Of a DNA stretch of 64,000 nucleotides, positions 613-63,595 are shown one piece after another; within the stretch, counting starts at the first letter, position 1; every line of letters begins with the position of its first letter. The stretch covers positions 17,362,001 through 17,426,000 of the forward strand of contig CM075988.1 of NCBI GenBank assembly GCA_038087875.1. Reading direction: 5' to 3'. The DNA is from Malacoraja senta (lineage: Eukaryota). The translations under genes were made by a program, and so were the position numbers. Below the pieces are notes generated by a model. The model saw only the letters and a list, made by a program, of their open reading frames with translations. It was not told where the DNA came from and did not search any database.

Positions 613-640
613 GACGTTTCAGGTCAAGACCCTTCCTCAG
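613..640 (-). ncRNA. Minimal hammerhead ribozyme motif in a Penelope-type terminal repeat
   Basis: minus strand CTGAGGA-A-GGGTC-TT-GACCT-GAAA-C-GTC. Confidence 0.55.
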
Positions 641-1769
641 ACTGGTTAGGGATAAGGGAAACGAGAGATATAGATGGTGATGTGGAGAGATAAAGAACAA
701 TGAATGAAAGATATGTAAAAAGGTAATGATGAATAAGGAAATAGGCCATTGTTAGCTCCGATTGGCATCTGGGTTGGCATGGACAAGTTGGACGAAGGGC
801 CTGTTTCATACTGTACGAAGCCAGGAGAAAGATTTCAGTAGGGAAGAAATTGAACTTTTTTTTTGCCTTCCATCACAGTGAGGAATATGGAGGAGTCACT
901 GTGGTGGATGTTCACGTTAAAAAGTATTTTGTGTGTTCCATTGCTTTTTTATTTGTATGACTGACTTCGCAAATGTTGACTTCCTCATATGTTGCAAAAC
1001 ATACTTGGCTAATAAAGTATCATTGTATTGTATTGTATTGTATTGTATCAATCTGTGATGGATTTGGGGAGTGTTATGCAAACTACAAAGGTTAATTTCC
1101 TTGAGCTAACAGCCCGAAACGTTGCCCATCTCCTTTGCTCCATAGATGCTGCCTCACCTGCTGAGTTTCTCCAGCATTTTTGTCTACCTTCGATTTTCCA
1201 GCATCTGCAGTTCCTTCTTAAACAATAATTCCTCTGTGTCGGGTTTATGAAAGAGAATTTTCAATTATTTATTTGGGAAAGAAAACTCCAAGATTTCAAT
1301 GCCTGCAAACGCTACAGTGAAAAAGATTTCGCTTTGTCTGCACGGTCCTCTCAAGGACAGCACAAACGGGTTTGCAAAGCTTTCTTTGTGCACTTCGAAC
1401 CACAGGAGTTGAGGATTTAAAAAAAAAAGAATTGAAGTGGGAGGAAAGAATAAACGGCAGGGCTTCCTGCTACTGGTTGAAATTCATACAGAAAATGTGG
1501 TAGGATTTTAGCTTCAGGTTTCCTCACATCTCCTAAAGATTCAAAGAATAATGAAACAAAATTGGTTCAATGCTTCAATGGCATTTTATTGTCACATGTG
1601 CCTAGCTACAGTGAAATTACTTCCTTGCACACAGCCAGTAAAATGATTACTATATATGGTCACAGTCATACTCGAGTACAGGGGTGTAGGAATAGTAGAT
1701 TACACTGAGATAGCACACAAGAGTCGCCACGTTTCCAGCGCCATTTTATATAATTCAAGTCCAATTGCC

Positions 1770-2105
1770 ACAAAAGGATGTGGAGAGGATGTTTCCAATA
1801 GTGGGAGAGTCTAGGACCAGAGCCCACAGCCTCAGAATAAAAGGACAGACCTTTAGAAAGAAGGGGAGGAATTTCTTTAGTCAGAGGGTGGCGAATCTGT
1901 GGAATACATTGCCACAGAAGGCTGTGGAGGTTGGCAATAGATATTTTTTTAAGGTGGGAATTGATAGGCTCTTGATTTGTACGGGTGTCAGGGGTTACGG
2001 GGAGAGGGCAGGAGAATGGGGTTGCGAGGGAAAAATAGATCAGCCATGATTGAATGGCTGAGTAGACTTGATGGGCCGAATGGCCTAATTGTGCTCCCAT
2101 GACTG
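1770..2105 (+). mobile_element. CR1-clade LINE 3' fragment (others at ~2905-3230, 5545-5975, 6730-7075, 9485-9860, 14128-14440, 19590-20065, 25295-25500, 51505-51810)
   Basis: RMFPIVGESRTRAHSLRIKG..FFSQRVANLWNTLP and gggccgaatggcct tail. Confidence 0.88.
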
Positions 2106-2314
2106 ATGAAAAGCTCAGGTCAGGCAGCATCTGTGGATTGGTACTGCCGATGGGTCGCAGACCTGAAATGTTGACTGATTCCCTTTCCTCAGATGCAGTC
2201 TGTGTTGCTGCGATTTTCTACATGTTTCCATTTTTCTTTCAGATATCCAGCATTTGCAATGTTTTTTTGATTTTGCAAGAATTGCACATTATTTAAACAA
2301 AAGTCAAAATTATA

Positions 2315-2500
2315 ACATAAAATGCTGGAGTAACTCAGCGGTTCAGGCTGAACCCCTGGAAAGTATGGATAGGTGACGTTTCAGGTCGGGACCCTTCTTC
2401 AGACTGTAGGAACTCAGGAGGTCAGGTAGCATCCCTGAAGAAGGGTTCCGACCCGAAACGTAAGCTATCCATGTTCTCTAGCAATGTTGCCTGACCTGCA
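2315..2500. mobile_element. Inverted pair of Penelope-type terminal repeats with hammerhead cores on both strands (2375-2402 minus; 2435-2462 plus)
   Basis: tgctggagtaactcagc...gtgacgtttcaggtcgggacccttcttcag / ctgaagaagggttccgacccgaaacgta...gcctgacc. Confidence 0.65.
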
Positions 2501-5500
2501 GATGGGGATGGGTTTAATTTGGCATCATTTGGCACAGACACTGTGGGCCGAAGGGCCTGTTGCACTCTATCTTCTATGTCAAATGGAATCATCAGAAAGC
2601 CATTTTTATAAAGGAGGACTGCAAGGCTGCCAAGAAGAAAAATGAATGAATGAGTTGAAATGCAACTGTAGAAGTAAAACAGGATGAGCCTCCAAGAGTA
2701 ATGTTTCCTGCAACCAACTTTGGTAATTATTATCTGCCCCCTAAGTAGGGATCAATGTATAGAATAAGCATCTAGGTGGAACAATGAAGCTAAAAACCAT
2801 GGAAACATTTAAGCAACAATTCGCTGCTGCAATTGGGAAAGGGACATTGGCATCCTTCTGCATGAACATTACCATCTTTCTGGATTTGTATATAAAATAA
2901 GATAGTGTGTAGACAGTCAGAATCGTTTTTCCCCCAGGTTGGAAATAGCCAACACCAGAGGGAGTAACTATAAGGTGAGAGGGTGAAAGTTTAATGGAGT
3001 TGTCCGGGTCTTTTTTGAAATAATATGTACAGAGATAGTGGGAGCCTGTAATGTACTGTCAGGAGTGGCGGAGGCAGATACAACAGGGGTGTTTAAGAGG
3101 CTTTTAGATTAGCACATGTCGTGCAGGGAATAGAGGGATATGGACCGTATACAGGCAGATGTGATCAGTTTGGCTTGGCATCATGTTCGGCACAGACATT
3201 GTGGGCCAAAGGGCCCGTTCCTCCATGTTCGAACAGACATGGGAGCAAAGGACCGTTACTGCCCTGTGCATCATCAATGGCAAGTTTGGATTATATTCCA
3301 TGCAGATTTTTCCATCCCGACTCTAGTGTAAAACGATAATATTAAAAATGTACTCGCACTGGGACTTAGATGCGGTGTGACAGGTAGCTACAAGAATCTG
3401 TGAAGCATTGCTTTAAAGATCAACCCCAGGGAAAGAAAGCAGCAGCAGGAATTCTTCTGAATGTCGGTCAAGACTTTTCAGCTTAAAACTTGTTCGTGCT
3501 AACAGATGCCAGCTGACAAAAAGGACTCAAGCTAATTTTGATGAAGCCACATGATACATTTTCAAAATATACATCCCACAGTTTTCCTATTAATGTATCT
3601 GGCAGTTTCATAAATTACTTTAATATCCTGGTCTCAAATGCCTTGTTTCATCTTTTTACCCTCTGCAATAGAAATACTGCTTGCATTTGGCTTCAAATGC
3701 GAACATTTAACATTCCAAGTCAATTTTCCCAATTATAACATCGCGCCACACCATTTTGTTTGCGTGGAATTGTTCGCAAATTAACCACATATATATATAT
3801 AATTTTTAATATAAGATTACTCGTACTCAGCACATGGACTTTGCTGGGAAAGGCAGTCTTTGTCATTAATTCTGACTTGCTCTTATTGCACCAAGTGCTG
3901 GAGTATCTAACTTGCCCTTATCTCAGAAGCCACAGATATTGAAGCAGAGATGGAGATCTCCTGCGTTGTCTGTATGTAAGCATAGATCAGCAAATCCTGA
4001 TCCTCTGTCTTTAAAATACTTTCTTTTCAAGTACTTATCCAGCTTGCCTTGGCTTGCTGGGACTAAACTTCCCTGGATGTGCATTCTATCTATATTCTGA
4101 TCCCCTGCATAAAATACGTTCCTCATTGTTGACTCTTTTATCAATCACCTTCATCTTATGTCCATTGATTCTTTATCCTTCCATCAACAGAAACAATTTG
4201 TCTCCATTTACTGTCTAAATCCTCGACAAGTTTAAAAACCTCCATCAGACCCTTTCTCAATTGTCACTATTCTTGGAATAAATCTGACTTCTCTAAAGTA
4301 CCTATGTTCCAAAGTCTCTAATCTCTGGTATTGTTTTAGTAAAGCTCATTTTCACATTGGTCCTGAAGTACGCTGCCAAAATTTGGCCACATTTGAACCC
4401 CTGAGAGGTTCTTTACCCCAGACCTGTGACCCCATGCATTGTTTTTTTTTAAATTTAAACTAGAGGAATAACTCCCCTGCCACTTATTCTCCATTCCTGT
4501 ACCATTTTACCATTCTACAAGGCCGGTAAGAGAGGGTGCGGGGTCTGGCCTAACACGCCTGGGGGAGGTCGGCTGGGGGAGGTACCCCCAGGGCACAAAG
4601 GTGGACGGGCGAGGAGAGGGACATTGGTTCGCTGGTCGTTCCACACATCCAAGGATTGGAGGCCCTGCAGCAGCCTGGGACTTGCCTAGGTCGGGCATCG
4701 CTCATAAGACCTAGAGTGCGGACTGGACTTTGAAAATGGCTCCAAAACCTGGCCCCTCTTGCATGCGGGCTCTGCAGACTATTTCTGTACGCTTCGGTAA
4801 TCGGGGATTATGCTTAGGTACGGCAATACTTTACTGGTCCGTATGTAAGAAAATAATTTCACTGTGCGTTTGCACATGAGACAATAAAAGCGCCACTGAA
4901 CCAATCATTTTGCTTACTTTTCCAACCAACATGTACCATCTTGCATCCTCTTACTGTAACTTTCAGCTGGAACTTATCCACCCATTTCAACAACCTGTCC
5001 ATAACCCCTTGCTTACTAGTTATTAATTATCATGACTTCCACTTCCATAATATCTGAAAATTCTGCCTCATAATTTGCGGCGGGTGTCAGGGTTTATGGA
5101 GAGAAGGCAGGAGAATGGGGTTGAGGGAGAGATAGATCAGCCATGATTGAATGGCGGAGTAGACATGTCGGGCCGAATGGCCTAATTCTTCTCCTAGAAC
5201 TTATGAACTTACCCTAGGCTAAGGCACAAACTGGTTTTTTTTTTAACATAATCCTGGTGTTGACAGCGGAGGAACAATGAACATTTAGCTACATTCCAGA
5301 GTTGGTCACTCGACTAATTTTCCACCTGTGCTCTTGTAGCCACTCTCATTTCACCCATTTGAAACCCAGATGTCAAGTCTATTATGCAAAATTTTACTTA
5401 ATATCTTATAAAACCTAGTACGGTGACTATAAGTCAGTGCCTTGTAGCCTGCAGACCCATTGCAGGAAGGCATGGGTTTGGAGTCACATACGTTACAGAC

Positions 5501-7181
5501 CAGGTTTACTTCCAGGTTTAGACTTTGTGAGGGGCTATGGGGAGAAGATACTGGGCCTGTACTCGCTGCAGTTTAGAAGAATGAGGGAGGACCTCATTGA
5601 AACATACAGAATTGTGAAAGGCTTGGATAGAGTGGATGTGGAGAGGATGTTTCCACTAGTGGGAGAGTCTAAAACTAGGTCATAGCCTCAGAAATAAAAG
5701 AACTTTTAGTAAGGAGATGAGGAGAAATTTCTTTAGTCAGAGGGTGGTGAATCTGTGAAATTCTGTCCCACAGAAGGCTGTAGAGGTCAAGTCAGTGGAT
5801 ATTTTTAAGGCCGAGATAGTTCGATTTTTGATTAGTACAGGTGTAGAAGGGAGGAGAATGGGGAGAAGGCAGGAGAATGGGGTTAGGAGAGATAGATCAG
5901 CCATGATTGAATGGTGGAGTAGACCTGATGGGCCAAATGGCCTAATTCTGCCCCTATCACTTACGACCTCATGACTTGGAGTCACATATGCTACAGAGCA
6001 GATCTGGGTTTGGAGTCATCAATGCAACAGACCAGGTCAGCACAGCCAATTACTTTTCCCAAAAGGATGTCTATGCACCTGGTGGGATTTTAAATTACAC
6101 TCCAGAAGTTTCACAGCGCCAACTTGTTAATATTAGATTTAATTAACCAAATGTAAAATCCTCAGCTGGTGGTTTTGAAACAAAGTGCCCCGTCAATCCT
6201 CCACTAGTCGAGAAACTAATTTAAAAAAAATCAAAATCACTGCAAATGTACAAAATCTGAAATATAAACAGAAAGCTCATTTAAACACTCAGCGGGTCTG
6301 AGATTATCTACATCGAACAAAATACAGCATAGGAACAGGCCCTTCAGCCCACTATGTCTGCAGTGACCATGGTACCAATCTAGCAAATTCCTTCTCCCCA
6401 CACGTTGAACAATACAGCATGGCAAGGGGGCCTTTGCCCCATGTTTTTGTTTTACATGACGCCACTTCCTTCTGTATAATCAGTGTCCCACTACGCCTGC
6501 CTGTGCAAATGTTGGTCTAAATGCCTCTCAAATGTTTCGATCATATCTGGTTGTACCACCTCACCTGGCAAAGCGTTCCAAGCACTTACCACACTCTGTG
6601 TAAAAAAAAAATCTTGCCACATAAATCTACAAGTTTTCCACCCTTTCCCATTAAAACATTCCCCATGCATTTGGCATTTCCACCTTTGGATAAATACTAT
6701 CCCTAATACATAGATAGTTTTGGAGTGTCACAGTGATACAGTGTGGAAACAGGCCCTTCGGCCCAACTTGCCCACACCGGCCAACATGTCCCAGCTACAC
6801 TGGTCCCACCTGCCTGCGCTTGGTCCATATCCACCCAAACCTGTCCCTATCCATGTACCTGTCTAACTGTTTCTTAAACGTTGGGATAGTCCCAGCCTCA
6901 ACTACCTCCTCTGGCAGCTTGTTCCATACTCCCACCACCTTTTGTGTGAAAATGTTCCCCCTCAGATTCCTATTAAATCTTTTCCCCTTCACCTTGAACC
7001 TAATGTCCTCTGGTACTTGGTTCCCCTACTCTGGGCAAGAGACTCTGTGCATCTACCTGATCTATTCCTCTCATGATACGTCCATTATTTTCCAAATGCA
7101 AGCAAATCCTGCCCCTACAAAATATTTGCAATAAATTCCCGAACAGTGATGCAAAGCTCACAGGCTTATAATTAACAATTT

Positions 7182-7986
7182 TGTCGCTTAAACAAAAGAA
7201 TAACATTAGCTAATCTCTAGTCTTCTGGATCGATGCTATAGCCTGGGACTGGATGTCAAGTATCCCGACAGGTTTCGGGAGGATGCTATTAGCTCGAGAC
7301 AGACAGAGCAAAATGGCGGAGCCAGGGGGACAAAGGAGTGCAGTGAAAATGGTCACATCATTGACATCTGGTGGGAGCAGGGCTGAAGGTAACTTCACGG
7401 CTAAGGCAGTACGGCGTTGAGAAGATAAGGTGCCTGGAACGGACATATTGCAAAATAACTCTCCAATGAGAAGGAGATACGAACAGGCAACATAATTAAG
7501 AACTCCCTAGACTGATAAGGAATGAAGATGTGTTTTGTTTATTCAGCCCTTGGAGGAGCGACAGCTTGAAATGATTGACTGTAAAGCCATGAGAGCCTTG
7601 GGTTAGAACAAAGGCTTCCTTTAGGAGATTGAAGGAAAATTAGGAATAAAGAAGGGCGGTCCGAGACATCTGCAACGACAACCTGGGGACAACCATCGCA
7701 AGAAGGAGGGACCCGAGTCCGAAGCTCAGGGAAGACTACCCCCTACCAACAGAGTGAATCTGGCCAATTCATTCAAACGGGTAATATCTGGCTCAAGTCA
7801 TGAGTTTTGTGATTTAGCTTAAGAAGTTGAAATAGTAAAGTAAATGAGAAGTTATTAGAAGTCAATTGTTTGCATGCATGTTTAAAGTTACTCGAGTGTT
7901 AATAAAGATTAAGTTGTACTGAACTGAACTTAAACCTTGGTTTAGAGTCTTTTGTTCGACACTTCAGTTGGTGCCCTGTAGAGGTA
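7182..7986 (+). mobile_element. Probable LTR (retroviral/LTR retrotransposon) with adjacent primer-binding site
   Basis: unique ~780-bp block; TGTCG..CGACA inverted ends; AATAAA ~7901; ..TTCA-gt-TGGTGCCCTGTAGAGG at 7969. Confidence 0.5.
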
Positions 7987-8570
7987 ATAGGGTCAACAAT
8001 GCCCATGACTAAAGAGGATATAAAGATCTCTGTCAAGGTTGCTGCAATCATCTCCCTTGCTTGTCTCAGTATCCTGTTATAGGTAGCATCAGACACAAGA
8101 GAAGTCTGTGGAATGAGAAATATGTTTCAGATCAAATGCCGTCCATCTGAACGTTCTGACAAGGGTCTTGGATTGGAATTGTTGAGTGCTTCTCTTTCCA
8201 CAGACGCCATCTGACCTGCTGAGCAGTTCCAATCAAAAAATAAAGCTGCCTCCATTTTGGGTGCATTAAAAATATACTGTTCCATTTACTGAAACAGGGG
8301 CGCAACGGTAGAGTTGCTGCCTTAGAACACCAGAGATCCTAACTACAGGTGCTATCTGTACGTTCTCCCTGTGACCGTGTGGGATTTCTCCGGCTGCTCC
8401 GGTTTTCACCCACACTCCAAAGACGTACTTGTTTGTTGATTGGGTTCGGTAAAGATTATACATTATCCTTACTGTGTAGGATAGTGCTAGTGTGATCACT
8501 GGTTGGCGCAATCTCGGTGGGCCGAAGGGCCTATTTCCGCGCTGTATCTCTGAACTAAAAGGTTTATTAC

Positions 8571-8710
8571 CGCTTCCCATTCTCGTAGAGTCTCTCAACT
8601 TCATTCTTCAGCTCCTGTTCTTTTTGAGCAAATTCTCTCTTTTCCTTTTCGGACTTCTTCTTCAGCTCCTCCAGTTTTACCTTCATCTCCTTGATCTGCT
8701 TAACGTTCTC
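8571..8710 (-). CDS. RNF214: RNF214 coding exon 5 (ENVKQIKEMKVKLEELKKKSEKEKREFAQKEQELKNEVERLYENGK)
   Basis: ttgcag acceptor, gtaat donor; resembles recalled human RNF214 coiled coil (..[30 protein letters not shown]). Confidence 0.9.
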
Positions 8711-11610
8711 CTGCAAGTTTTGGTGATAGATCGAAAAGGTAATTCGAATTGCCGTCACACAACTTGCCAGCCGCGGAAAGAGGAACAATACTGCTAATCT
8801 TCCCAAAAGAAGCTTCATTTTACAGCAATTTCATGTAATGGAACATTTTAATTTAAATTGTAAATGCTAAAGGCACTATCAGTAATCAACTTCAAACAGT
8901 TACCATGCTCAAGAGCATGAGCCAAATTAACATCAACGGCACGACAGCCTTGGGGATTACATGTTGAATAGCGAATGTTAATTCAGCACCACCAAATTAA
9001 GTTCAGCCACTTAACTAATGGTGTACTTTTATTCCAGAGAGAATTGCAAAATGCTTCCACAGTTTTAGGGAAACATCCTGTGGTTTGTTTCAGTTTAGTT
9101 TGTTGTCACGCGTACCGAGGTACAGTGAAAAGCCTATGTTGCATGCTAACCAGTCAGCAGAAAGACAATACATGATTACAATCGAGCCATTTATAGTGTA
9201 TAGATGCATGATAAGGGAATAACGTTTAGTGCAAGGTAAAGCCAGCAAAGTCCAATCAAAGATAGTCCGAGGGTCACCAAAGAGGTAGATAGTCATTCAG
9301 CAGTGCTCTCTGGTAGTGGTAGGATGATTCAGTTGCCTGAATTATGGAATTATCCTGGGTATGAAATGGGATTGCGAGAAAGAAGAATTAGGTTAAACAG
9401 TTCTTCCTAGGACAGCACAAATTAAAAAAAATAATAATAATAATAAAAACAGTCCAACTCAAGAGTCATACAGCATGGAAACTAGCATTTATTTCAAGAG
9501 GGCTTGTATACAAAAACAGGGATGTAATGTTGAGGCTCTATAAGGCACTGGTAAAGCCGCATTTGAAATACTGTGAGCAATTTTGGGCACCATATCTGAG
9601 GAATGATGTGCTGGCTCTGGAGAGGGTCCAGAGGAGGTGGTGAATCTGTGGAATTTTTGCCACAGAAGGCTGTGGAGGCTGTCAGTGGATATTTTTAAGG
9701 CAGAAATAGATAGATTCTTGATTAGTACAGGTGTCAGAGAATATGGGGAGAAGGCGGGAGAATGGGGTTAGGAGGGAGAGATAGAACAGCCATGATTGAA
9801 TGGCAGAGTAGACTTGATGGGCCGAATGGCCTTATTTTACTCCTATCACTTATGTTCTTATGACTTATGAAACAGACCCTTCGGCCCAACTTGCCCACAC
9901 TCACTAATTGCCCCATCTATACTGGTCCCACCTGGGTGGAGCAAAGTAGGGAGAGTAAAATAGGATTTGTGTAAATGGACTCAGGATCACCCAACGCCTG
10001 TTTCCCTGCTGTATGAACTTATGGAAGTTCAAAAGTGCTATTCCCAAAGATAATAGGTAGCCCATTTTAAGATATTTGGTCTTTATTCTTGGGATGTGGT
10101 CACCATTGATTGCCCATCTCCAGGTATTGGTACGGGCTATTCCAAAAACGTCACGTATCCATGTTCTCCAGAGACACTGCCTGACCCATTGAGCCACTCC
10201 AGCACTGTGTCCGTGGCTATCCACACTGGACACTCGCACCACACACACACACATTGGACCCATTCCGCACCACTCATTTAATGCACCTTCTCTATTCAGA
10301 GGAATCTCTCAGTCACCGACATTGAAAATGCTTATTCTGGTTTAATTTATACTAAAACCATTGTATACAGGAAAATATCTACCGAGGTTGCCAAACAGTA
10401 GCTCATGGAGAGAACTCAAAAAATCACATCCAAAACCTTTCGATGACAACAAAGTTTATGTTTGTTCTGCCACCCAGTTATAGGTCATGTTGTCTCAAAT
10501 CCATGAGCCGTAAGGCTGCTCTAATGCCAGCTGTTGTTGACTCTGTTGAACCAGGCTGCATCTTCACTCTAAATCACTTGGTGCCAACTCAAATATTTGG
10601 TACAAACATGCTAATTCAAGGACAATTCTTGCTCAAGTAATATTCGGGATAGTTTTTTGATTAATTGAATAAAATTGATTGAAAGTTAGAGCAGGGACAC
10701 AGGCCCATCGGCCCACTGAGTGCAGATGACCATTGATCACCCATCCACACTAGTTCTATGTTATCCCACTTTCTCATTCACTGCCTACATGTTAGGGGCA
10801 TTTACAGAGGCCAATTAATCCAAAAACCTATGGGATGTGGGAGGAAATCAGAGGACCCGGAGAAAACCCATGTCGTCATAGGGTGAACGCGCAAACTCCA
10901 CACAGACAGCACCTGATGCCAGGATGGACCTGGATCTCTAGTGCTGCGAGGCAGTAGCTCTACCTGCTGCACCACTGTTTTACTTTGATTGGACCCGTAA
11001 ATTTATGTCAGGTAAATGCAGAAGTACTATGCCTACGAACAGTGGGAAATACATGCTATGCTCCATTAGTTAAGTAAGCCTATTTTGTTATTTTGGGAAG
11101 TGGCCAACATTTATTATTGACCTCTCGGTTCTGGTTTGGCAACTTTTTGCACAGCCAGTGTGATGCATAATACTGTTGGGAATAAGCTAGAGAAATTTGG
11201 ACAATCACAATGAAGAACAGAAAGGTATATTTCCCAGCTCCTAACAAGGCATAACCTGGAAACAATGTTTCATGGCCTTGTCTACCTTTCAGGTGGTGCT
11301 AATTACGTCTGGCATGGGCTGTCTACTTTGTGTTTGTCAAGACCCTAGTTACCGAAACGTTGGTCCCACTCCATATTTCCTTCACTCCATAGATGCTGCT
11401 GCACCCGCTGAGTTTCTCCAGCACTTTTGTCTACCTTTGATTTTCCAGCATCTGCAGTTCCTTCTTCAAAACCAAACTGGCTTCATTCCTCACATAACAA
11501 TGGTGATTTCACTTGCTGCAAAAGTACTTTCTAGGCTGCAAAGCATTTTGGAAATGACCATGGATGAGAACGGTAAATGCAAGTCACTTTTTCTTCCTAC
11601 GTACAGTTAC

Positions 11611-11751
11611 CTGGTAGATGTTCTCCTCTTCCTCCTGCTGCTCTTGAAGGTGACGGACTTTGACCTGGAGCTGGTTCTCCACCTGTATCTGTCGATCCAA
11701 CACCTCCTGGTACTTGTCCTTCAGGACCTCCCGTTCAGTCGCCACTTCATT
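11611..11751 (-). CDS. RNF214: RNF214 coding exon 4 ([47 protein letters not shown])
   Basis: cttcag acceptor, gtaac donor, 141 nt phase 0-0; resembles recalled human [28 protein letters not shown]. Confidence 0.92.
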
Positions 11752-12915
11752 CTGAAGCAACACACCAGGCAAGATTAAAACATTAATAAATAAAAGCAAC
11801 GACTTCACATGTACCGAGAAAATCCTGCCTTCAACGTGCCAGCATTAATGCAGACTGGTTTCAGAGAGCAAACCTGCAAATTAGGTCAATTGATAACGAT
11901 TCGACCCCGAGCTGGAAGCTCAAGGTTGGCTACTGTCCTTGTTTATTTTCTAAATTTGGACGGCACAGTGGCACAGCTGGAAGAGCTGCCACCTCACAGC
12001 GCCAGAGACCCGGGTTCAATCCTGACCTCGGGTGTTTGTGTGTGGAGTTTGCACATTCACCATGCGATTGCTTGGGTTTTCTCCAGATGCTCCAGTTTCG
12101 ACCCACATCCCATGACATGCAAATCTGAAAATTAATTAACCTCTGATAATTGTCCCTACGGCGTAGGAGGTGGGATAACATCGAATGGATGTGGTGGATC
12201 ATGTCCATTCTGTCAATGGCCTCCACCATGTTGATGTTGAGGGACTCAATGATGGTAATTTCTGAATTTCCCCGAGGGGATCAATAAAGTATTTATTATT
12301 ATTATTATTATTAATGCACTGAATGTCAGTGGTAATGTTGGAGATGACCATTGCCAGGCACAATTGTGGCACAGATGTTACTTGCCACTTATACTGTATA
12401 GGTTTGGCTGCAAGTTAAAGTGGGTGGCTTCATTTATGTCATAAGGTCATAAGTGATTAAAAAAAAAAATTAATAAGTGATAGGAGCAGAATTAGGCTAT
12501 TCGGCCCATCAAGTCTACTCCACCATTCAATCATGGCTGATCTGTCTCTCCCTCTTAACCCCATTCTCCTGCCTTATCCCCATAACCCCTCATGCCTGGG
12601 AATTGTTGGCTGTTCACTAGTTGAATATCTCCTCTTCTGATGGAATTCACCAATAAGTTGGCTTTGGGAGTCCATTTCCCAACTAGTTCTTCAATTTCAG
12701 TTCTTACCAAAAAAGTTCAGAATATTAAAAAAAAACGGTTACCTCTCTCAGCAAACTAAATGACCATCTAAATGCATTTTAGACCCAGTGGTGAACAGAA
12801 CAGATAGTGCCAGAGCTTTAATCAGTCCTTGGAGAACAAAAGATGTGGAAACAAGAATTGCAGAACTGTACTCGTCAGCACCAGAGTTAACAGCTCGACA
12901 ACAATACACACTTAC

Positions 12916-12975
12916 CATGTACCTCTCAATGTCCTGATTAGTACTGACCTCTGCATCCACAGTAAAACAATCAGT
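12916..12975 (-). CDS. RNF214: RNF214 coding exon 3 (TDCFTVDAEVSTNQDIERYM)
   Basis: tttcag acceptor, gtaag donor, 60 nt; resembles recalled human [20 protein letters not shown]. Confidence 0.9.
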
Positions 12976-15900: not shown

Positions 15901-16003
15901 ACTTCCTGGTGTTTCTGGAGATACTGGGTCAATTCTGAGAGCTTTCAAACATAGACGCAACCCAGAACCCTCCACGCCTGTTTATATTCTTGCAGGGCCC
16001 TAC

Positions 16004-23093: not shown

Positions 23094-23129
<36 letters not shown>

Positions 23130-43364: not shown

Positions 43365-43479
43365 TGAAGTCTGCAGGGTTGTGATAAGTCGGACAATGCA
43401 GGCCCAGTCCTTTAAGGAAGGGGATGAGGTTGGGAACAATCCCTTTGTAGATGCACTGCCCTTGGCTCACGATGAAGAG
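43365..43479 (-). CDS. ABCG4: ABCG4 exon ([38 protein letters not shown])
   Basis: ctcacag/gtaag boundaries, 115 nt; ABCG-specific NPADF motif. Confidence 0.95.
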
Positions 43480-47472: not shown

Positions 47473-47596
47473 CTTGTCAAACATTTCAAAGAGCTTGGCA
47501 CTGGGCTGATGGATGGTGCAGATGATGGTCCTCCCGCCCTGTGCTAGTGACCGCATCAGTGACACCACTTGGAAACACGAGGCACTGTCCAGACCA
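47473..47596 (-). CDS. ABCG4: ABCG4 exon ([42 protein letters not shown]-loop and H-switch)
   Basis: ctctcag/gtacg boundaries, 124 nt phase 2-0. Confidence 0.96.
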
Positions 47597-47598
47597 CT

Positions 47599-49358: not shown

Positions 49359-49523
<165 letters not shown>

Positions 49524-51111: not shown

Positions 51112-51162
51112 CAGTTCCTTCTTAACTTCCAATTTCTCCTTCAGCTTGAGGTGAGCTGAGAC
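51112..51162 (-). CDS. ABCG4: ABCG4 short exon (VSAHLKLKEKLEVKKEL)
   Basis: tttaaag/gtgagt boundaries, 51 nt; resembles human VSANLKLSEKQEVKKEL. Confidence 0.92.
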
Positions 51163-54100
51163 CTTTAAACAAAGCAATAACATTCAACATTTGAGAAAAA
51201 AAAGTGAAATAATACAACTCAGGAGTCAAAGTGCAGATTGTGAATTTACTTGGAGTACACTTTCTTTCAGAAATAAATGCGTCAATTAACAATCTGTAAT
51301 CACTGGAAACATAAGGGCACAATTCTTCAGTTCTATTTACAGGTAATTAATTAGGAGACAAATACATTTACAATCATTTCCCTGATTGTTGCTATGGGTA
51401 ATGTCACTTCAAGCGATTATCTTCACTGAGCGCTGGCCTCAACAATTACATTGGTGGAGGGAGGACGAGTCTTCACGTGGTGCAACAGGAAGGAGGTGCA
51501 GAGGAGGTTTGGCACAATGATGCCTGGATTAGAGGGTGCTAGCTACAAGAAACGGTTAGACAGACTTGGAAAGGTGGAGGTTGAAGGGGGACCTGATAGA
51601 AGTCTACACATTTATGAGAGGCAAAGATAGAGTAGACAGTCAGAACCTTTTTCCCAGGATGAAAATATAAAATACCAGAGGGCATCGCTTTAAGGAGAGA
51701 GGGGTGAAGTTTAAAGGAGATGTGCGGGTCAAGTCTTTTTTTACACGGTGGGTGGTGGGTGCCTAGAACATAACATCTGGAGTAGTTGAGGCAGATATAA
51801 TAGTGGAATTCAAGAGCAGGGAAGGAAGCTGTTTGGCCTATCCAACGGGTGCAGTTGAGAAAGAGAAGTGAATAAAAGAGGGAGCAAAGGATGAAATAAA
51901 TAAGGGCAGCACAGTGCCACCGCTGGTAGAGCTGCTGCTTCACAGCACCAGAGACCCCGGATCATTCCTGACACCGGGCGCTCTCTGTGTGGAGTTTGCA
52001 AGTTCTCCCCGTGACTGCACGGGTTTCCTCCGGATGATCCGGTTTCCCCCCACATCCCAAAGACGTACGGCTTTGTAGATTAATTGGCCTCTAACAATTG
52101 CCTCTAGAGTGTCGGGAGTGGATGTGAAAATGGGATAACATTGAACTACTGTGAGCAAACATTTGATGGTTGGCATTCTCAGTGGGCTGAAGGGCCTACT
52201 TCCATGCTCTATCTTTCAATAAATTCAATCTATTGCGATTCTCTGTGAGAGCAACTCAGTCAGTCCCATTTCCCAGTTAGACCTGCCATTTATTTCCTCT
52301 TTAAGCATCTATCCAGACAGGATGAGTTGATCTACTTCTGCTAAATTAATGCCACATGATAACTACCTACTGCATAAAAGAAAATCCCTCAGATCCCCCT
52401 AATTCTTGGGCGAATCACTTTAAATCTGTGTTCTTCACTCAGTGAAAACACGTCCCCTTTATTCACTTGGCCATAGCCGTTCATCATTCTTGAACCTGTA
52501 TCAATTTTCTGCTCACAGGTGAACAACCCACATATCTCCAGCTTATCCATGAAACTGATGCAGGTTGGCGCAGGGGTGGAGTTGCTGCCTTACAGCGTTT
52601 ACATGCCCGATACCGAGGTTCAACAGGTGCTGTCTGCATGAAATTTGTTAGTTCTCCCCGTGACCGCGTGGGTTTTCTCCGAGATCTTCGGTTTCCTCCC
52701 ACACTCCAAAGACCTACGGGTTTGTAGGTTAATTGGCTTGGTATGCGTGTAAATTGTCCCTAGTGTGTTAGGATAGTGTTCATGTGCAGGGATCGCTGAT
52801 TCAGTGGGCCGAAGGGCCTGTTTCCATGCTGTATCTCTAAACTAAAAGGAAGTCTCTCATTCCTGGGATTGAACAATTAAATCCTCCCCATCCCTTCTCA
52901 AGGCAGGTTTTTCACACCCTTCGTTGACCAGCATTGTTTCTAAACGTAGACAAGTACAAGAGAGAAAAAGGACTAGAATGATACGCAGAAAAGCTGAGAA
53001 AAAAAGCATTAAACATTACAACATTAAATACAACTATTTGAGATCACACGTGTGGGAACTGACAGGTTCCGTGAATAAACTTTGGCACAGTAGCTTTTGA
53101 GATTTGAGGAAGAAAGCAATCGCATGTGAAAACAGAGAGAGAAGAAACTGCAGACGCTGGAAACTTGAGCAAAGTGCAATGTGCTGGAGGAACTCAGCGG
53201 GTCAGGCAGCATCAGGGGCGGGAATGGACAGACAACGTTTTGGGTCGGGACCCTTTTTCAGACTGTAATCCTGAGCAAAACACAAGGTGCTGGAGGAACT
53301 CAGCAGGTCGGGCAGCATCTGTGGAGCATCTTGACAGGGTCATCTGTCCAATCCCTCCACAGATACTCCCTGACGTGTGGAGTTCCTCCAGCACTTGGTG
53401 TTTTGCTCAAGATTCCAGTGTGTGCAGTCTCTTGTGCCCAGGGACAATTGTAATTGGGGAAGGTGGGACTAGATAGATTCCTTCTTTCCAGAGATGCTGC
53501 CTGTCCCGCTGAGTTACTCCAGCATTTCATGTTTAATTTTGGACTAGATAGAATCTCTTCTTCTTTTGTCTTGCAAATTTGTGTGGCTTCCAATTCCTTC
53601 TACGATACTGCACCCCTTTCAGTGTAGATAAGCACCGCCATTCTGAATCTGTGAGATATTTTGATTTCCTGTGATAAACACACATGCACAGTAGGAGCTA
53701 ACCTGCGTCTCTAGACTTTAGACAGACAGCGGGGAAACAGGCCCTTCGGCCCACTGAGTCCATGCTGACCAGCAATCACCCCATACACTAGCACTACCCT
53801 ACACACTAGGGGCAATTTACAATTTTATTGAAGCCAATTAACCGACAATCCTGTACATCTTTGGAGCGTGGGAGGAAACCGGAGCACCTGAAGAAAACAC
53901 ATGAAGGTCACGGGGAGAACGTACAAACTCCATACACACAGCACCCATTGTCAGGATTAAACCCAGGTCTCTGGCGGTGCAGGGTAACAACTCTACCACT
54001 GCGCCACTGTGCCGCCCCAGTGTCCTTTGCTTCAGCGAAGTGAAGTCAATAGAACTGTTTCACTCGTGAATCCTCTGCACAGAAATTTAAAGTAAGTGGG

Positions 54101-55487
54101 AATGGAGGCCCATGCGCTGTTGAACTATTCAACCTTGGAATCTGAGGCCAGTGCGGGAGCTATTGCCAGAGATTGGGTTGCAGTTTGCCCAGGTGGAGAC
54201 CATTTGTTGTAGGGATTTATTCCTGTGCCTTTGTGTCCTGTTCAGCCTCTTTGCATTTTCTCCCTCTCTTGTTTCTAAAGAACCGCAGAAAGATCCTTTC
54301 AATTCAACACGTTGGCGCTCGTTTTTTTTTTGCTTCCTTTCAAAATAAATGGCTTGCAAAGTTGGCACACAGCAGTGTTACAGAAACAAAACCAGCGTGC
54401 AAACGGAGGAGGAAGAATATTTGTAGAGCGATCTCCATCCTACACTCTTTCAATCCATGAAATGTATCGCCACTCTTATAGAGACCTGATCCTGCTTTCA
54501 GTGGTAATGTAATCTGATGAATTGATTTGCAAACCAGTTCTCTTGCTTGGCAAACAAGGGCAAGCCGATTGAGAATGTCACGATTACAACTTCTTTAACG
54601 TTTCCTCTGCCGCTCGAAATCATTGAATAAGTTCTGGTTTTTGGACATTTAGATTCTAAGTAACCAGTTTCTCCAACTTGCATCAAAAATGGACAGTTCT
54701 CTACGCATGGTCACCAATTAGAAGTGTTAACTGTTCCTCTTTCTGCAGATGCTTCTTGATCTGCTGAGTATTTCCAGCCTTGCATACTTTTATTTCAGAT
54801 TGTAGGGACCCGCAGTTGTTTATAAATCAAGGAGTTGGGCACCAGAGTGTGTTTGATGCTCAATTTTCCAGCTCAGGCACAGTCTGATGTGCACGTTCCT
54901 GTCTGTGCATTGGTTCTTAGCATCCCACCTGAAATAAGGGTTGGCAAGTTCAATCCCATCGTTTAACCCCACAGCACACCACTGGTAAAAGAGGCAACCT
55001 GCGTGGGATTTCTCCGAGATCTTCGGTTTCCTCCCACACTCCAAAGACGTGGAGGTTTGTAGGTTAATTGGCTTGGTATAATGTAAAAATTGTACCTGGT
55101 GTGATTAGGGTAGTATTAATATGCGGGGGTACACAAACATGCTGGAGAAACTCAGCAGGTGCAGCAGCATCTATGGAGCGAAGGAAATAGGCAACGTTTC
55201 AGGCCGATATTAATATGCGGGGATCGCTGGTCAGCGCGGACCCGGTGTGCCGAAGGGCCTGTTTCCGCGCTGTATCTCTAAACTAAACTAAAGAAAGACC
55301 AGGCAGAATGTGAAAACAGATCCTCAAACGGTGGTGGTTGGCAAGTTAAAACCAGCCTTTTTAAATCCCTAAAGTATAATTCCCTCTCCAAACAACTCTT
55401 GCCTCTCCACCAGTGATTATCAATTAAAACTCAATCATGTGTTGAAGTTTCTCCATGTCCTCACTCCCACTGCATTTCTGGAAGCTA

Positions 55488-55728
55488 CTGCAGGCTCTGT
55501 GCTCCAAAACCTCTGTATCCCTGCAGATTCTGTGCTCCAGTGCATCCCTGCAGTTCTTGGCTCCAGGACCTCTGCATCCCTGCAGGTTCTGTGCTCCAGG
55601 ACCTCTGCATCCCTGCAGTTCTTGGCTCCAGGACCTCTGCATCCCTGCAGGTTCTGTGCTCCAGGCCCTCTGCATCCCTGTATGTTCTGTGCTGCAGGAC
55701 CTCTGCATCCCTGCAGTTCTTGGCTCCT
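55488..55728. repeat. 32/33-bp minisatellite, ~7 units
   Basis: ggacctctgcatccctgcaggttctgtgctcca (33 bp) interleaved with ggacctctgcatccctgcagttcttggctcca (32 bp). Confidence 0.92.
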
Positions 55729-56240
55729 GCCTATCTCCTGCTTCCTTTGGCTCACATCTGACAACCTGTAACTTCAGTCCTCTTGGCCCTCTCTCTGGAA
55801 CCCGACAGCGAACTATTGACTTCAGAGCAGGTTTGCAGAGGTCAGGAACTCTTTAGAGATACAGCGTGGAAACATGCCGTTTGGCCCAATGAGCCTACCA
55901 GCGATCACCCCGTACACTAGCACCAGCGTACACACCAGGGACAATTCACAATTTTTAACAAAGCCGATTAACCTGCATGTCTTTGGAGTGTGGGAGGAAA
56001 CTGGAGCGCCCGGAGAAAACCCACGCGGTCATAGGGAGAACGTACAAACTCTGTACAGACAGCACCAGTTGTCAGGATCGAACTCAGGTCTCTGGCGCTG
56101 TAAGGCCACAGCTTTACCGCTGTGACACTGTGCTGTCTACACCTTCTGATTGGATAGCTGGATGACTATAGTTCTGTTAGGAACTGCTGGCTTTATTCAG
56201 TATCATTTAACCAAATATACGTCCATCACATTGAACATCA

Positions 56241-56465
56241 TAGATAGACACAAAATGCTGGAGTAACTCAGTGGGTCAAGCAGCATCTCTGCAGAAAATG
56301 GATAGGTAATGTTTTGGGTCAAGCCCCTTCTTCCAGCTGAATCTGACGAAGGGTCCCGACCCGAAACGTCACCCATCCATTTTCTCCAGTGATGCTGCCT
56401 GACCCGTTGAGTTACTCCAGCATTTTGTGTCTATCTTTGGTATAAACCAGCATCTGCAGTTCCTT
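56241..56465. mobile_element. Palindromic Penelope-type terminal-repeat element with hammerhead core at 56343-56370 (+)
   Basis: agatagacacaaaatgctggagtaactc...gagttactccagcattttgtgtctatct inverted arms; CTGACGA-A-GGGTC-CC-GACCC-GAAA-C-GTC. Confidence 0.7.
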
Positions 56466-57380
56466 TTTTTATTATATTAAACATCTTGACTGTCAAAAAA
56501 AAGACTTTTTTGATAATCATCTTAAATCAGTGATTTCGGTTACCGACCAATGCAACGGGCTTCTCTTAAGGAACGTTATTCATGATTTTCAACATCTCCA
56601 ACTTAAGTCAACAATGTTTGTGCCTCTCAGAAAAGCCTATGAAGTCACAGTGAGATACAGCATGGAAAGTGGCACTTTAGCCCATCAAGTCTGTCACTGT
56701 GCCACCCTAACGTCCGAGAGGCTTTGTGGAGCATTTTCAGATATGGACAATATCCTCAGCTAGCCATGAAGTTTCTTGTCTTCAGCACTGTCCCAGTAAA
56801 TTGCCATACCCATTTCAGTATATTGATGTATTTCCTACAGTACAGCAGCCAAAATTAAACATGGCCCCCAGATGAGACAAATCCCCCAACAAGAGTCATA
56901 AGTTCACAAGACACGGTGGCGTAGTGGGAAAGGTGCTGCCTTGCAATGCTTGCAGCGCCAGAGACCCTGGTTCGATCCCGACTACGGGTGCTGTCTGTAC
57001 AGAGTTTTATGTTCTCCCAGTGACCGCGTGGGTTTTCTCCGAGATTTTTGGTTTCCTCCCACATTCCAAAGACGTACAGGTTTGTAGGTTAATTGGCTTG
57101 GTATAAGTGTAAACTGTCCCTAGTGCGTGTAGGATAGTGTTAATGTGTGGGGATCCTGGTGGGCCGAAGGGCCTGTTTCTGCTCTGTCTCTAAACTAAAC
57201 TAAAGAAAACATAGGAGCAGATTCGGCCCATTGTCTACTCCGCCATTCAATCATGGGTGATCTATCTTTCCCTCTCAACCCCATTCTCTTGCCTTCTCCC
57301 CGTAGCCCCTGACACCCGGGTCACGCAGGTTGCTGCTACTTGTCACGTGTAAATAGCAGGTCTGTGCCCCAGATACATAC

Positions 57381-57513
57381 CATCATGGCTTCCAGTACAG
57401 TGAGGTGTGGCAGCAACATGTCATCTTGCATGATGTAGCAGGACATCTTTCTGAATGTTCGCAAGTCCCGTGGCTGCCCATTTACAAGGATCTGGCCTTT
57501 CATTCCCGTTTTC
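57381..57513 (-). CDS. ABCG4: ABCG4 exon ([45 protein letters not shown]-loop)
   Basis: ttttag/gtatg boundaries, 133 nt phase 2-0. Confidence 0.96.
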
Positions 57514-58789
57514 CTAAAAGGAGCACAAGAGGAGCGTAAATCACAAAGTAATTATTTTTGTTAAAGTATCGAATTATAACCAACCGAGGCCATTCAGCCC
57601 AACAGACTGATGTTCACTCTCAATACATATTCCCTTATACACTTCACAGTGGCCTCTACTTAACTAGGTCTTTGATAGCAAGTACCATATTCCAACAAAT
57701 ATGTGGATTTATTAATAACTATCTTATCCTTATGAGCAACAGTTGTGGTCTCCTCATCTCTTTCCATTTGAAGCAGGAAATGTTCTTCAATTGATGCTCG
57801 CTATGATTCATCAGATTCCACAATTACCACTTCACCTTGGCCCAGACCTATAAAGGACCTTCGGGCCATGTGCCACACGGCAGGACTGGTTCACCTGCTG
57901 CGGAACTGGGAATCGTGCCTGAAGAAGGAAGTGCCCAAGCCCGTGCCCGAGTTCCCCTCCGTGGCTTGGCCGTAAAGTTGCTGCCTTACAGCGGCAGAGA
58001 CCAGGTGGGTTCAATCCTGACTACGGGTGCTGCCTGTTCGGAGTTTGTACTTCTCCCTGTGACCACGTGGGTTTTCTTCAGGTGGTCCAGTTTCCTTCCA
58101 CCCTCCAGAGATGTACAAGTTTTTAGGTTAATTGGCTTCAGTTTAAAAAAAAATTGTAAATTGTCCCTGGTATATAGGGTGACTGTTGGTTGGCGCGGAC
58201 TCTGTGGGCCATAGGACCTGTTTCCACGCTGATTCTCTACAGTCTAATGTATAAAGGAAAGCTACCGATCCCGGCTCAGTGCTCGCTCCCGAGCATTGGA
58301 GAACCGGAGAGGAGGGTGTGGAGGGAGTTGGCGATGGCCGACGCAAGAACAAAGGGCTTGTAAGAAGAATCAGGACCCTCAAGGTCGGCTGTGAGAGGGG
58401 CCCCCGGAGGAGAAGTGCCGAATGGTGGCCGGGCATAGAGAGGAGCGACGGTTCACTTGATGATCTGGATGGAGGTGAAGGCTGCAATGGGCCTTTGTGG
58501 CCAGCTACAGCTTGGTTATTAAAAATGGCTCCAAACCTGGTGACTCTCGTGTACGGTCTCTTTCTACACACTTTGTACCTAATCTGGAATTGTGCTTATA
58601 TATACTAATAATTTACTTAACAGTGTGCAAAAAAAATAGTCACAAATGTCAATGGACCAAATTGTTTTTTTCTATTAATGTTTTATGAGCTAAGATTCAG
58701 CAAATTAAGTTCACTAATGTTTTTTATTGGTAAACAGTTAATCAGTGTAACGATGCAAGAATCAATAGCAATAAGCATTTGACACTCAC

Positions 58790-58907
58790 CTGTACCCTGC
58801 TAAAATATTCATGAAGGTGGACTTCCCAGCGCCTGAAGGACCCATTATGCCGATTAGCTCCCGACTGCAGAACCTTCCGGATAGACATTTTAAAAGAGTC
58901 TTGTACC
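58790..58907 (-). CDS. ABCG4: ABCG4 exon ([38 protein letters not shown]; Walker A); upstream first coding exon not found in window
   Basis: ttttag/gtgagt boundaries, 118 nt phase 1-2; GPSGAGKS P-loop; KCLSG..RELIGIM is ABCG4-type. Confidence 0.96.
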
Positions 58908-59165
58908 CTAAAAGACAAAGTTAAACAGTGCATGAAAATGTGGGTTTAATTGGAAAAGTTGATCCTTGGAAATTTAATAAAAAGGAACTGCAGATGCTGG
59001 TTTATACCAAAGGTGGACAGAAAATGCTAGAGTAACTCAGTGGGTCAGGCAGCATCTTTGGAGAGAATGGATAAGTGACTGAAAAAGGGTCAGACTGAAG
59101 AAAGGTCCCAACCTGAAACATCACCCATCCATTTTCTCCAGAGATGCTGCTGACCAGCGGAGTAA

Positions 59166-61056: not shown

Positions 61057-61350
61057 TCTATATTACTAAAAGTCTGATCTTGACCACTTCCTGTTGTTCT
61101 GTATATTGATTTTAGAAAAAACGCTGTCACTTACGGCTGTGATTTTGGCCATCTTACTCAGAGTCCCCCTCCGCAGCGCAGGACAAGAGGATGTTTCCCA
61201 TCGATGAAAAATAAAAGAGTTGTTAGTGTTTAAAAAATGTTGTGATTCTCTCTCCGGAGGGACTATAAAACCCAGAAGTGTTGAGTGCCTCAGTCAGTCT
61301 CTGCAAGCTGGGGGAGCGAGAGGGTCACGTCTCTCAGTGTGAGCTGTGAA
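61057..61350 (+). mobile_element. Possible Helitron 5' fragment
   Basis: begins A|TCTATATTACTAAAA, typical of Helitron 5' termini; no 3' hairpin-CTAG found. Confidence 0.4.
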
Positions 61351-61477
61351 TGAGTCTGGAGTGACATGTAGGTCAGATAATATAAGGAAGGCAGATTTTA
61401 TTTCTTGAACAAAATGGGTTTTAACAATATTTGGTAGAATTAAGGGATCGTACAGCAATGGTATAGGAGGCCACTTC

Positions 61478-61670
61478 AGGAACACCGAATGTAGTAGATG
61501 AGGTTAGAGGAGGTTCACGTGACCTTTGTCTCACCTGGAAGGATTGCTGGGGTCCCGGGATGGAGGCAAAGGAGGAGGTATAGGGACAGGTGTTACATCT
61601 CCTGCGGTTGCAGGGGAAAATACCTGGGGAAGGGGTGGTTTGGGAGGGAAAGAGTGAGTGAGCCAAGGAG
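61478..61670 (-). mobile_element. Penelope-like element GIY-YIG endonuclease remnant (frameshifted)
   Basis: PGIFPCNRRRCNTCPY..GPQQSFQVRQR then, in a shifted frame, TSSNLIYYIRCS: the Cys-rich linker and first GIY-like strand typical of vertebrate PLE endonucleases; weaker plus-strand remnant near 42360-42460. Confidence 0.7.
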
Positions 61671-63595
61671 CTGCATTGGGAGAGGCATTTTGTTAGGTCT
61701 CTGGAAGAAGCAGCTAATAATTGTTATGAGCCAAGTGCCCTCTAAGCTGCAAAGAGAGAAATTATGTATTTATCATCTACGTAATTTAGAACTGCAATTT
61801 GTTGGAATATAAATATAGTTGATGTATTGTTCTCGTTTAAAATGCAAAACAATAAAATTCCTTTCAGAAATTATTTCATGAAGGAAAACTTGTTTTTAAG
61901 TAATATGATGTTAGGACATTTATCTCTAATTTACTGCCTGTTATATGTGAGGAGGCCACTAAATTAGTTGTTTGACAGACTGTGGTGTTGGTACAAAGTA
62001 GAAGGGACAGAACATCCTACACCTGGCTGCTGGTGGACATGTTAAATGGACAACTTTAACAATTGCTCCATCACTTCACTTTAGACTTTACAGAAACAGG
62101 CCCTTCGGCCCACCCGAGTCCACGACGACCAACAATCATCCCGTGCACTAACTCTATCCTACACACTAGTGACAATTTAACAACATACCAAAGCCAATTA
62201 ACCTACAAACCTGTACGACTTTAGAGCATGGGAGGGAACTAGAGCACCTGGAGAAAACCCACGCGGTCAAGGGGAGAATGTACAAACTCCATACAGACCG
62301 CACCCGTAGCCGGGATCAAACCGGGCTCTCAGGTGCTGTAAGGCAGCAACTCTACCGCTGCACCACTGTGCCGCCCCTAAACCGCTGTTGTATTTAGTTA
62401 GTCCCATTCTGGTCATGTCTAATTTTTCTCTTCCTACTATTTGCTAACAGCTATCCTGTTCCGATATCTCGGCTGCTAGATACAATGTCCAGTTTTAGTC
62501 AGTTATGACATTCATAAGCACTTTCAGGATCTCTGAGATAGGAAAGGGGCTGAAAGAAGTGGCAGGAACAGAAAGTTTCCAAAAGTGATCAATAAGCATT
62601 GTCAAAAAATATGCTTTGTGTTGGGCCAAAAGGCCTCTTTTTATGTCGTATGACTCTATGACTATTATAGTGTACAAAAACATGAGGGGAGTGGACTGGA
62701 TGTATGCACAGATACTTTTTCCGCAGGTTTGGGAAAGCAAGAACAAGGGGCAACTTTTTCACATGGGTATATGGAATGAGCCGCCAGAGAAAGTAGTTGA
62801 AATAGGGACAATAACAAGATTTAAATGATAGACACGAAATGCTAGGTTAAATGCTGAAGAAGGGTCCCGACCTGAAACGCCACCTATCCATTTCCTCGAG
62901 AGGTGTTGCCTGACTGTTACTGAGATGTTGAGTTACTTCAGAATGTTGTGTCTATCTTTGGTATAAACCAAATATCATTTAAGCCTCTGCAGTTTTTTTT
63001 ATTGTAACATTTAAATGATAGTTTGACAGTTACATGGATAATAAAGGTTGGAGGGATACGGATCAAATACAGGCAAATGGGACAAGCACAGATGGGTATC
63101 TTGGTCAGCATGGGCAAGTTGGGCTGAAGGGCCTGTTTCCAATCTGCATGAGTCGATGACATCTCTGTGTGTAGACTACAAATGCTAACAGGGTGGGCAC
63201 CAGGTATGGAACATGTTGTAGCCAGAGAGGGTGGGGAAACAATTAATGCTTCTAAAAGGTTGTTGGAAAACTTTAAAATCAAGTCGAAGATGAGATCTCC
63301 TTTCAACATCCCAACGAATGCTAAACCGAATGTTGATGCATTTCCAGGCCGAGAGTCAACAGCTGATTAACGCGAGCTGGCAGGCTCTTTCATTAGCTCT
63401 TAGACACTGCTTTTCCTCACTCAAACGTATTTTAAACACTTCAATTAGATGCCAACAGCTAACAAAACCTCAGTTCATGAGCAGATCTTGTTACACGATT
63501 AGCGTTGTGCGCGCGAGGAAGATGACATCATTGTGCAATGCTGGAAATAAAGCTGCCAACAATGACCAACTTTGCAGAAACTGATAACAGCAAAC

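Follow-up and report, generated by a model that had tools for sequence, protein, structure and literature searches.

Results

A 64,000-nt stretch of the Malacoraja senta genome (assembly GCA_038087875.1, contig CM075988.1, positions 17,362,001 to 17,426,000 of the forward strand; hereafter the window) is strewn with copies of a short repeat. These repeats are very probably the 5'-truncated 3' ends of a Penelope-like element (PLE) that encodes a reverse transcriptase (RT) and a GIY-YIG endonuclease (EN) and carries a minimal hammerhead ribozyme motif; the inserted copies are decaying, and cleavage of host RNA by them is unlikely. As a whole this is a largely ordinary finding: neither the motif nor the element that hosts it is new in kind, and the literature already describes minimal hammerheads at PLE ends (PMC4209133).

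In the window, a profile search for the repeat (100-125 nt) located 46-47 fragments, and the hammerhead core is spanned by 23 of them. A preliminary description of the window, made from its letters, had named five 28-mers with this core, at 613-640(-), 2375-2402(-), 2435-2462(+), 22083-22110(-) and 56343-56370(+), and all five were found where it had placed them. The substituted copies that it listed at 21696, 24295, 27904, 30630, 36426, 42133 and 59095 are also real, and the one given as 62853 starts at 62854. Its claim of a very high copy number is borne out by 25,079 exact pattern matches in the 1.94-Gb genome, compared with none for a reversed control. Our sample statistics rest on 1.0 Mb of DNA, for which the larger contigs were sampled at even spacing in 100 stretches of 10 kb each. 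The sample contains 449 fragments, which occupy 42,060 of 1,000,000 bp (4.2% of the DNA), and a reversed control on its first 600 kb gave 0 fragments. If the sample holds for the whole genome, ~449 fragments per Mb amount to roughly 0.9 million copies. An Rfam scan of the window returned no hammerhead family among 23 matches at E<=5.

The host element

Of the 30 best GIY-YIG matches (two of them a near-identical pair), 29 are followed on their own strand by the repeat, at a distance of 119-337 nt, which supports the proposed link to an RT/GIY-YIG PLE. The complete unit, counted from C3 of the hammerhead core, consists of the hammerhead, a tail, an ATG at about +163, a 1,211-aa frame, the 3' untranslated region (UTR) and a second hammerhead, and is ~3.9 kb long. 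Within one young subfamily the repeats are spaced 3,891-3,918 bp apart and flank an open frame with RT and GIY-YIG; the open frame has 1,213 residues at locus L307 (L307:1884-5923, G000:C675) and 1,224 residues at locus L303. Partial tandems, with pseudo-long terminal repeats (pLTRs) on both sides of the open reading frame (ORF), are found at loci L291, L292, L297, L307 and L310. Copies of the young subfamily (L307, L303, L291, L292) are 95-99% identical, and to judge from its sequences the subfamily is probably still active or was so recently. Most other element copies are broken, the longest open frame among the 150 GIY-YIG matches listed being 384 residues.

The 1,224-residue frame contains YIDD and GIY-YIG motifs and is matched by Pfam RVT_1 (E 6.7e-6) and GIY-YIG (E 0.0015). 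The linker that joins RT to EN reads CNRKRCNTC (CX4CXXC) in translation, as do the C/C/H/H residues of the endonuclease, and these features make Neptune the likely clade. Two points weigh against these assignments: both Pfam matches on the full protein fall below the curated cut-offs (a GIY-YIG match at locus L082 passes), and the clade name is based on the linker and CCHH motif rather than on a tree, Nematis having the same linker. None of the 120 listed among 568 protein homologues is named by PLE clade.

The preliminary description had noted a GIY-YIG remnant at 61478-61670. The remnant is real, lies on the minus strand and spans 61478-61690, but no hammerhead end belongs to it, and Pfam alone did not recognise it. 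The copy at 62854 was considered as its end and ruled out, since the two are on opposite strands and 1.2 kb apart. Neither this family nor the 5' hot spot reported below turned up in our literature search; Repbase and Dfam were outside the scope of the search and may already hold the family.

The suggestion of a separate non-autonomous family is not supported by the sample, though such a lineage may exist. The pieces are very probably 5'-truncated ends of the autonomous lineages. Every sampled subfamily class contains both short and extended copies; five of the six named sequence classes include GIY-linked copies. On the other side, one class of 12 copies has no GIY-linked member among the 153 linked copies. 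We also considered a tandem retrozyme and rejected it, only 12 of 278 core copies being arranged head to tail.

The hammerhead motif

The anatomy of a minimal type-I hammerhead is present as described earlier: the core, a 9b insertion, and a palindromic ACGU in place of stem III. Stem II had been read as 5 bp closed by 2 nt, and it folds instead as 4 bp with a 4-nt loop. A strict descriptor (CUGANGA, 9b, GAAA, NUH, G10.1-C11.1 and palindromic 15.2-16.2) finds the motif ~37 times per Mb and 0 times in the control. Among the named copies it is passed only by 2435(+), 22083-22110(-) and 56343(+), whose stem I has 0, 2 and 1 bp, respectively. The copies at 613-640 and 2375-2402 had been called intact; they do keep the core letters, but they fail the descriptor because it requires G10.1-C11.1 and their C11.1 is now U.

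Stem I is as weak as had been supposed: it has 2 bp in 27 of the 37 strict matches, and folding predicts a pairing probability of <=0.013. No longer-range pairing for stem I was predicted in a young source copy or in one older source copy, and the longer-stem-I variant tested has only 8 matches genome-wide. The ACGU duplex is predicted to contribute -3.1 kcal/mol. In the published hammerheads, stem I is 2 bp in the D. virilis variant and 4-5 bp in S. mansoni, and the minimal PLE motifs are reported to cleave weakly in vitro as dimers (PMC4209133). The motif of PAc, the Poseidon element of Anolis carolinensis, is described as cleaving only when protein is added, while hammerhead mutants of PAc still insert in vitro (PMC11167929).

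Several features suggest that the hammerhead is under selection in source elements. The subfamily majorities retain the core, except for a G12 CpG change in the oldest cluster of 18 copies, whereas many flank columns differ. Where subfamilies differ in the stems, pairing is preserved (U-A to U-G at 10.4-11.4 and at 2.1-1.1). The covariation in stem II that might have been expected is lacking: in 43 ORF-linked copies none of six pairs in the hammerhead helices changed on both sides, all helix changes are one-sided, to G-U, and the covariation score is no better than that of shuffles (244/500); these 43 rows are closely related and were picked for an intact core.

A motif that is only a hammerhead look-alike, or a relic already dead in source elements and kept as a protein-binding or promoter signal, would account for the missing two-sided changes, for the absence of an Rfam match and for a stem I shorter than the 4-5 bp of the S. 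mansoni family, and the insertion of PAc without a working ribozyme fits as well. We nevertheless regard this alternative as unlikely, though worth serious consideration. The core, the 9b insertion, G10.1-C11.1 and the palindrome all agree with the published consensus, the stem pairs survive subfamily differences in the midst of changing flanks, source elements retain the mutable CpGs at G12 and 15.2-16.2, and the PAc motif does cleave upon addition of protein.

Ends and layout of the copies

The 3' ends of the young subfamily fall at two fixed points, +93/94 and +129/130 from C3. Core copies in all DNA examined number 422, of which 169 are neither extended nor inverted and 120 of these have a definable 3' end. 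Exact target-site duplications of 8-15 bp flank 32 of the 120 (0 of 360 in shuffled pairings), which shows that the short copies are independent insertions. The layouts of 278 core copies are 119 solo, 79 inverted, 68 extended and 12 tandem. A head-to-head partner accompanies 161 of the 449 fragments (8.6 expected), a tail-to-tail partner 12, and a same-strand upstream neighbour 36. Genome-wide, 482 junctions form perfect palindromes from the bases immediately 5' of the core. PLEs are known to have inverted 5' partners (PMC8557442, PMC3846280).

Some individual loci deserve mention. At L307 and L093, one stretch within +45..+115 from C3 is predicted to pair with one or the other of two near-identical sequences, each at a similar distance before one of the two 3' ends; two alternative hairpins might set the two RT start points. 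L209, L078 and L224 contain a broken-core PLE end within a larger repeated composite, of which they share up to 1.9 kb at ~87%; the composite adjoins the end of another repeat, and the PLE end has spread as a passenger. L131 and L301 have a common 1.7-kb flank (91%), which bears a short copy at one place and, at the other, a long copy of the young type; the long copy is without the first 24 nt of the motif and is possibly an insertion into an older copy.

The 5' ends pile up at the 5' edge of the ribozyme, away from the cut site. Solo copies that reach +9 number 196, and 121 of them have their end in -15..+9 (0.038 per nt); those that reach +59 number 251, and the end of 50 lies in +10..+59 (0.0044 per nt). 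Where the flanks are unique (119 copies), resemblance to the element declines to background within ~6 nt upstream of C3. Because the upstream sequence is pyrimidine-rich and variable between subfamilies, continuation of the 5' end was scored in two ways, from the alignment and from base composition; detection of short fragments is incomplete. Ribozyme-cut RNA as the template was rejected, only 2 of 257 solos beginning at +28, the first base past the cut, with no peak there.

The hot spot coincides with the sequence TCAGTC, which we take to be initiator-like. Extended copies retain TCAGT 5' of the core, with values of 0.94 for the C at -4 and 0.87 for the A at -3. The most likely cause of the hot spot is run-off of the RT at the RNA 5' end, an explanation that we put at somewhat less than an even chance. 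A structural stop stays as an alternative, because neither a cap-derived G nor an upstream exon common to the junctions was established. Two observations tell against the picture just drawn. First, 2 of 20 young long copies start at +24/+25, near the cut site; one of these sits within duplicated DNA that has a short copy at its other location. Second, the 5' junction is fuzzy, and where a cap-derived G was looked for, before AGT, there are 9 G among 18 non-C bases.

Might the 95/130-nt unit be a self-sufficient non-autonomous element, with its own promoter and RT starts, copied in trans by the PLE protein? The sharp size class with target-site duplications of its own and the retained TCAGT could be read in this way, as could published accounts of an internal TATA-less promoter in D. 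virilis Penelope (PMC2377424) and of rotifer pLTRs that alone mobilised host DNA in trans (PMC3846280). We think this improbable: the sampled classes each mix short with extended copies, nearly all named classes are GIY-linked, and run-off on autonomous RNA predicts an identical size class. A related proposal, for which we see only a slightly better though still modest chance, is that the hot spot is a transcription start at TCAGTC and the 95/130-nt piece a minimal self-copying unit that fills ~4% of the genome. If true, this piece would unite promoter, protein-binding site and RT start, with TCAGTC three bases before the hammerhead core, and hundreds of thousands of insertions would map the RNA start and the two-ended (twin-primed) chemistry of PLE insertion.

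It is very unlikely that the hot spot is a 3' splice site and that short copies derive from spliced RNA. The pyrimidine tract and CAG that precede TCTGA in ORF-linked copies resemble such a site, and an intron in D. virilis is reported to end at helix I (PMC4209133), but the 32 resolved junctions have no common upstream exon between target-site duplication and core. A spliced-leader origin of the short copies was dismissed on the same lack of a shared upstream exon.

A possible route of insertion, modelled in part on PAc, would be as follows. The element protein would bind the RNA between hammerhead and tail and nick the DNA, and reverse transcription would start inside the RNA at one of two 3' points; the tail of PAc is described as lying between two internal RT start sites (PMC11167929). 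A start within the first terminal repeat of the transcript would limit the copy to 95 or 130 nt and end it at about -6..+4, most likely the RNA 5' end at TCAGTC, with the tentative standing given above, or otherwise a structural stop. Two cDNAs primed at both ends of one break could join via the TCAG-T-CTGA palindrome and yield inverted pairs, for which self-priming is the published alternative. Selection likely keeps the hammerhead in source elements alone. There a single RNA has two copies at a distance of 3.9 kb, and these could pair, probably assisted by protein.

Decay of the inserted copies and host transcripts

Once inserted, the copies lose their catalytic CpGs at least as fast as neutral ones. 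CpG retention is 0.49 at C11.1-G12 and 0.56 at 15.2-16.2, compared with 0.65 in the loop and 0.60 in the flank. G12 is the general base of the hammerhead according to PMC6155905. Genome-wide, G12A occurs 6,679 times in otherwise exact motifs, compared with 2,573 for the neutral G-to-A change in the loop and 25,079 intact motifs. G12A is thus 2.6 times as frequent as the loop change, and at both core CpGs the G is lost more than the C; the excess could reflect sequence context or selection for dead ribozymes. As to conservation of the core relative to its flanks, core CpGs decay at least as much as neutral CpGs, but the non-CpG core letters depart less from the subfamily majority (5.4-5.9%) than the flanks do (9.0-10.2%). 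The latter figure speaks against free decay, as does retention of the complete motif in 49 of 247 core-spanning copies, about a fifth. We read the difference between non-CpG core letters and flanks as unresolved variation among source elements; weak constraint on the copies is also possible.

The window holds two host genes, RNF214 and ABCG4, and the minus strand encodes both. RNF214 was named by homologue search, the nearest named RNF214 being from a skate (98% on one exon); an ESM Atlas and Pfam scan of 150 of the 167 minus-strand frames did not name this gene. Its exon at 8571-8713 is covered by four RNA contig sets (window 1-10800), the contigs being without RNA starts, ends or strand. The large RNF214 exon contains a coding tandem repeat of ~8 units of 33 nt (window 16393-16755).

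Minus-strand copies in the sense of RNF214 pre-mRNA had been thought capable of cleaving it if two copies pair. This is unsupported. Both sense copies in the RNF214 coding span (613, 2375) have lost C11.1, and none of the seven core-spanning sense copies in the RNF214 and ABCG4 coding spans passes the strict descriptor. Fragments in the two spans favour neither strand (17 are plus, 15 are minus), the catalytic CpGs decay, and inverted pairs are predicted to form hairpins of -71 to -174 kcal/mol in which the motif is buried. Given a 2-bp stem I, no covariation and no strict sense copy, cleavage of host RNA by inserted copies is unlikely. The specific proposal that intronic sense copies pair, cleave RNF214 or ABCG4 pre-mRNA and alter host expression could appeal to the density of strict motifs, to the seven sense copies themselves, to the predicted energy of the ACGU duplex and to the low dimer activity reported for PLE hammerheads in vitro (PMC4209133), but the failure of all seven copies, the barely paired stem I, the burying hairpins and the unbiased orientation with free decay of G12 leave it highly improbable.

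Other features of the window

The genes and PLE fragments of the window are collected in Table 1. At 24448-25107 the window also contains inverted repeats of 108 nt (97%) separated by 444 nt, between which a hairpin lies at 24731-24863; the whole resembles a piece of a DNA transposon or of a miniature inverted-repeat transposable element. A second very abundant dispersed repeat of ~300 nt (19223-62381) is presumably the end of a short or long interspersed nuclear element. Long purine-rich simple-repeat arrays lie at 22780-24160 and 47560-48150, the second inside an ABCG4 intron.

Table 1. Genes and PLE-derived sequences in the window (a point in the strand column marks features not assigned to a single strand).
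Position	Strand	Feature	Details
391..18933	-	RNF214 coding exons	gene runs past window start
519..643	-	PLE 3'-end copy with tail	core 613-640, C11.1 to U; RNF214 intron, sense; ~117 nt of further element 3' UTR upstream
2111..2259	.	old degraded head-to-head pair	
2293..2501	.	cluster of minus copy, minus fragment and plus copy	minus core 2375-2402, C11.1 to U; plus core 2435-2462, GUA triplet, without stem I
17263..17485	.	head-to-head pair	core of plus copy (17369) broken; long hairpin predicted
20953..21075	+	PLE end copy	substituted core
21693..21815	+	PLE end copy with tail	G12 to A
22000..22112	-	short solo copy	core (22083-22110) intact, stem I of 2 bp; flanked by target-site duplication of 8 bp; lies 3.2 kb upstream of first RNF214 coding exon
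24292..24328	+	37-nt fragment	substitutions in core and stem II
27806..28023	.	head-to-head pair	junction is palindrome immediately 5' of core
30627..30743	+	short solo copy	G12 to A
34105..58908	-	ABCG4 coding exons	
36331..36547	.	head-to-head pair	ABCG4 intron
42006..42251	.	head-to-head pair	ABCG4 intron
46794..46981	.	head-to-head pair	minus-copy core broken
50345..50465	-	older copy	core broken; preceded by ~160 nt of element 3' UTR
53142..53548	.	four-fragment cluster	minus core 53234-53261 with G12 to A
56232..56464	.	head-to-head pair	plus copy with intact core 56343-56370, antisense to ABCG4, predicted buried in -140 kcal/mol hairpin
58983..59163	.	head-to-head pair	substitutions in cores
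61478..61690	-	broken PLE ORF piece	Cys linker (CNRRRCNTC) and GIY-YIG start; separate insertion
62854..62971	+	short copy	substitutions in stem II and cleavage triplet

Comparison with known systems

The value of this family is as a data set. Its fragments and intact young subfamily record PLE insertion, with two fixed RT starts, target duplications of 8-15 bp, pairs joined at a palindrome, and cut RNA unused as a template. The record bears on the role of PLE hammerheads and offers a Neptune-type test system alongside the Poseidon element of the anole.

The motif shares with the PLE hammerheads described in PMC4209133 the CUGANGA core, the extra base between 9 and 10.1, G10.1-C11.1 and the palindromic 15.2-16.2, the lack of a helix III loop, the presence in both flanking repeats, and the predominance of solo truncated copies and opposite-strand pairs. 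It differs in having a stem II of 4 bp with a stem I of only 2 bp, and in its abundance: ~25,000 exact motifs, compared with the ~4,000 given there for coelacanth and ~9,000 for Xenopus. The supplement file of that paper that we searched names no cartilaginous fish, and its other supplements may list one.

The element itself resembles the EN-containing PLEs Neptune and Nematis as characterised by Craig et al. 2021 (PMC8557442), with one ORF for RT plus a GIY-YIG at the C terminus, a CX2-5CxxC linker and CCHH residues, pLTRs in partial tandems, inverted 5'-truncated partners and an optional tail of 30-40 bp. In contrast to these, it has a long proline-rich N-terminal part, its 1,211 aa exceeding the ~700-950 of most homologues listed, and most of its copies consist of the last 95-130 nt only.

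PAc, as reported in the sections of Frangieh et al. 2024 used here (PMC11167929), likewise has two 3' ends that define a tail and a hammerhead at the repeat, with nothing that points to cut RNA as the template. The PAc ORF starts at stem II, whereas the ATG here lies ~163 nt after C3, past the tail, and the two elements belong to different clades. Finally, the animal non-LTR retrozymes (Li et al. 2026, bioRxiv 10.64898/2026.07.22.740005) are, from what that preprint sets out about them, similarly PLE-derived and non-coding with a type-I hammerhead, but they form head-to-tail arrays with a motif in each unit, whereas the copies in M. senta are mainly dispersed solos or head-to-head pairs.

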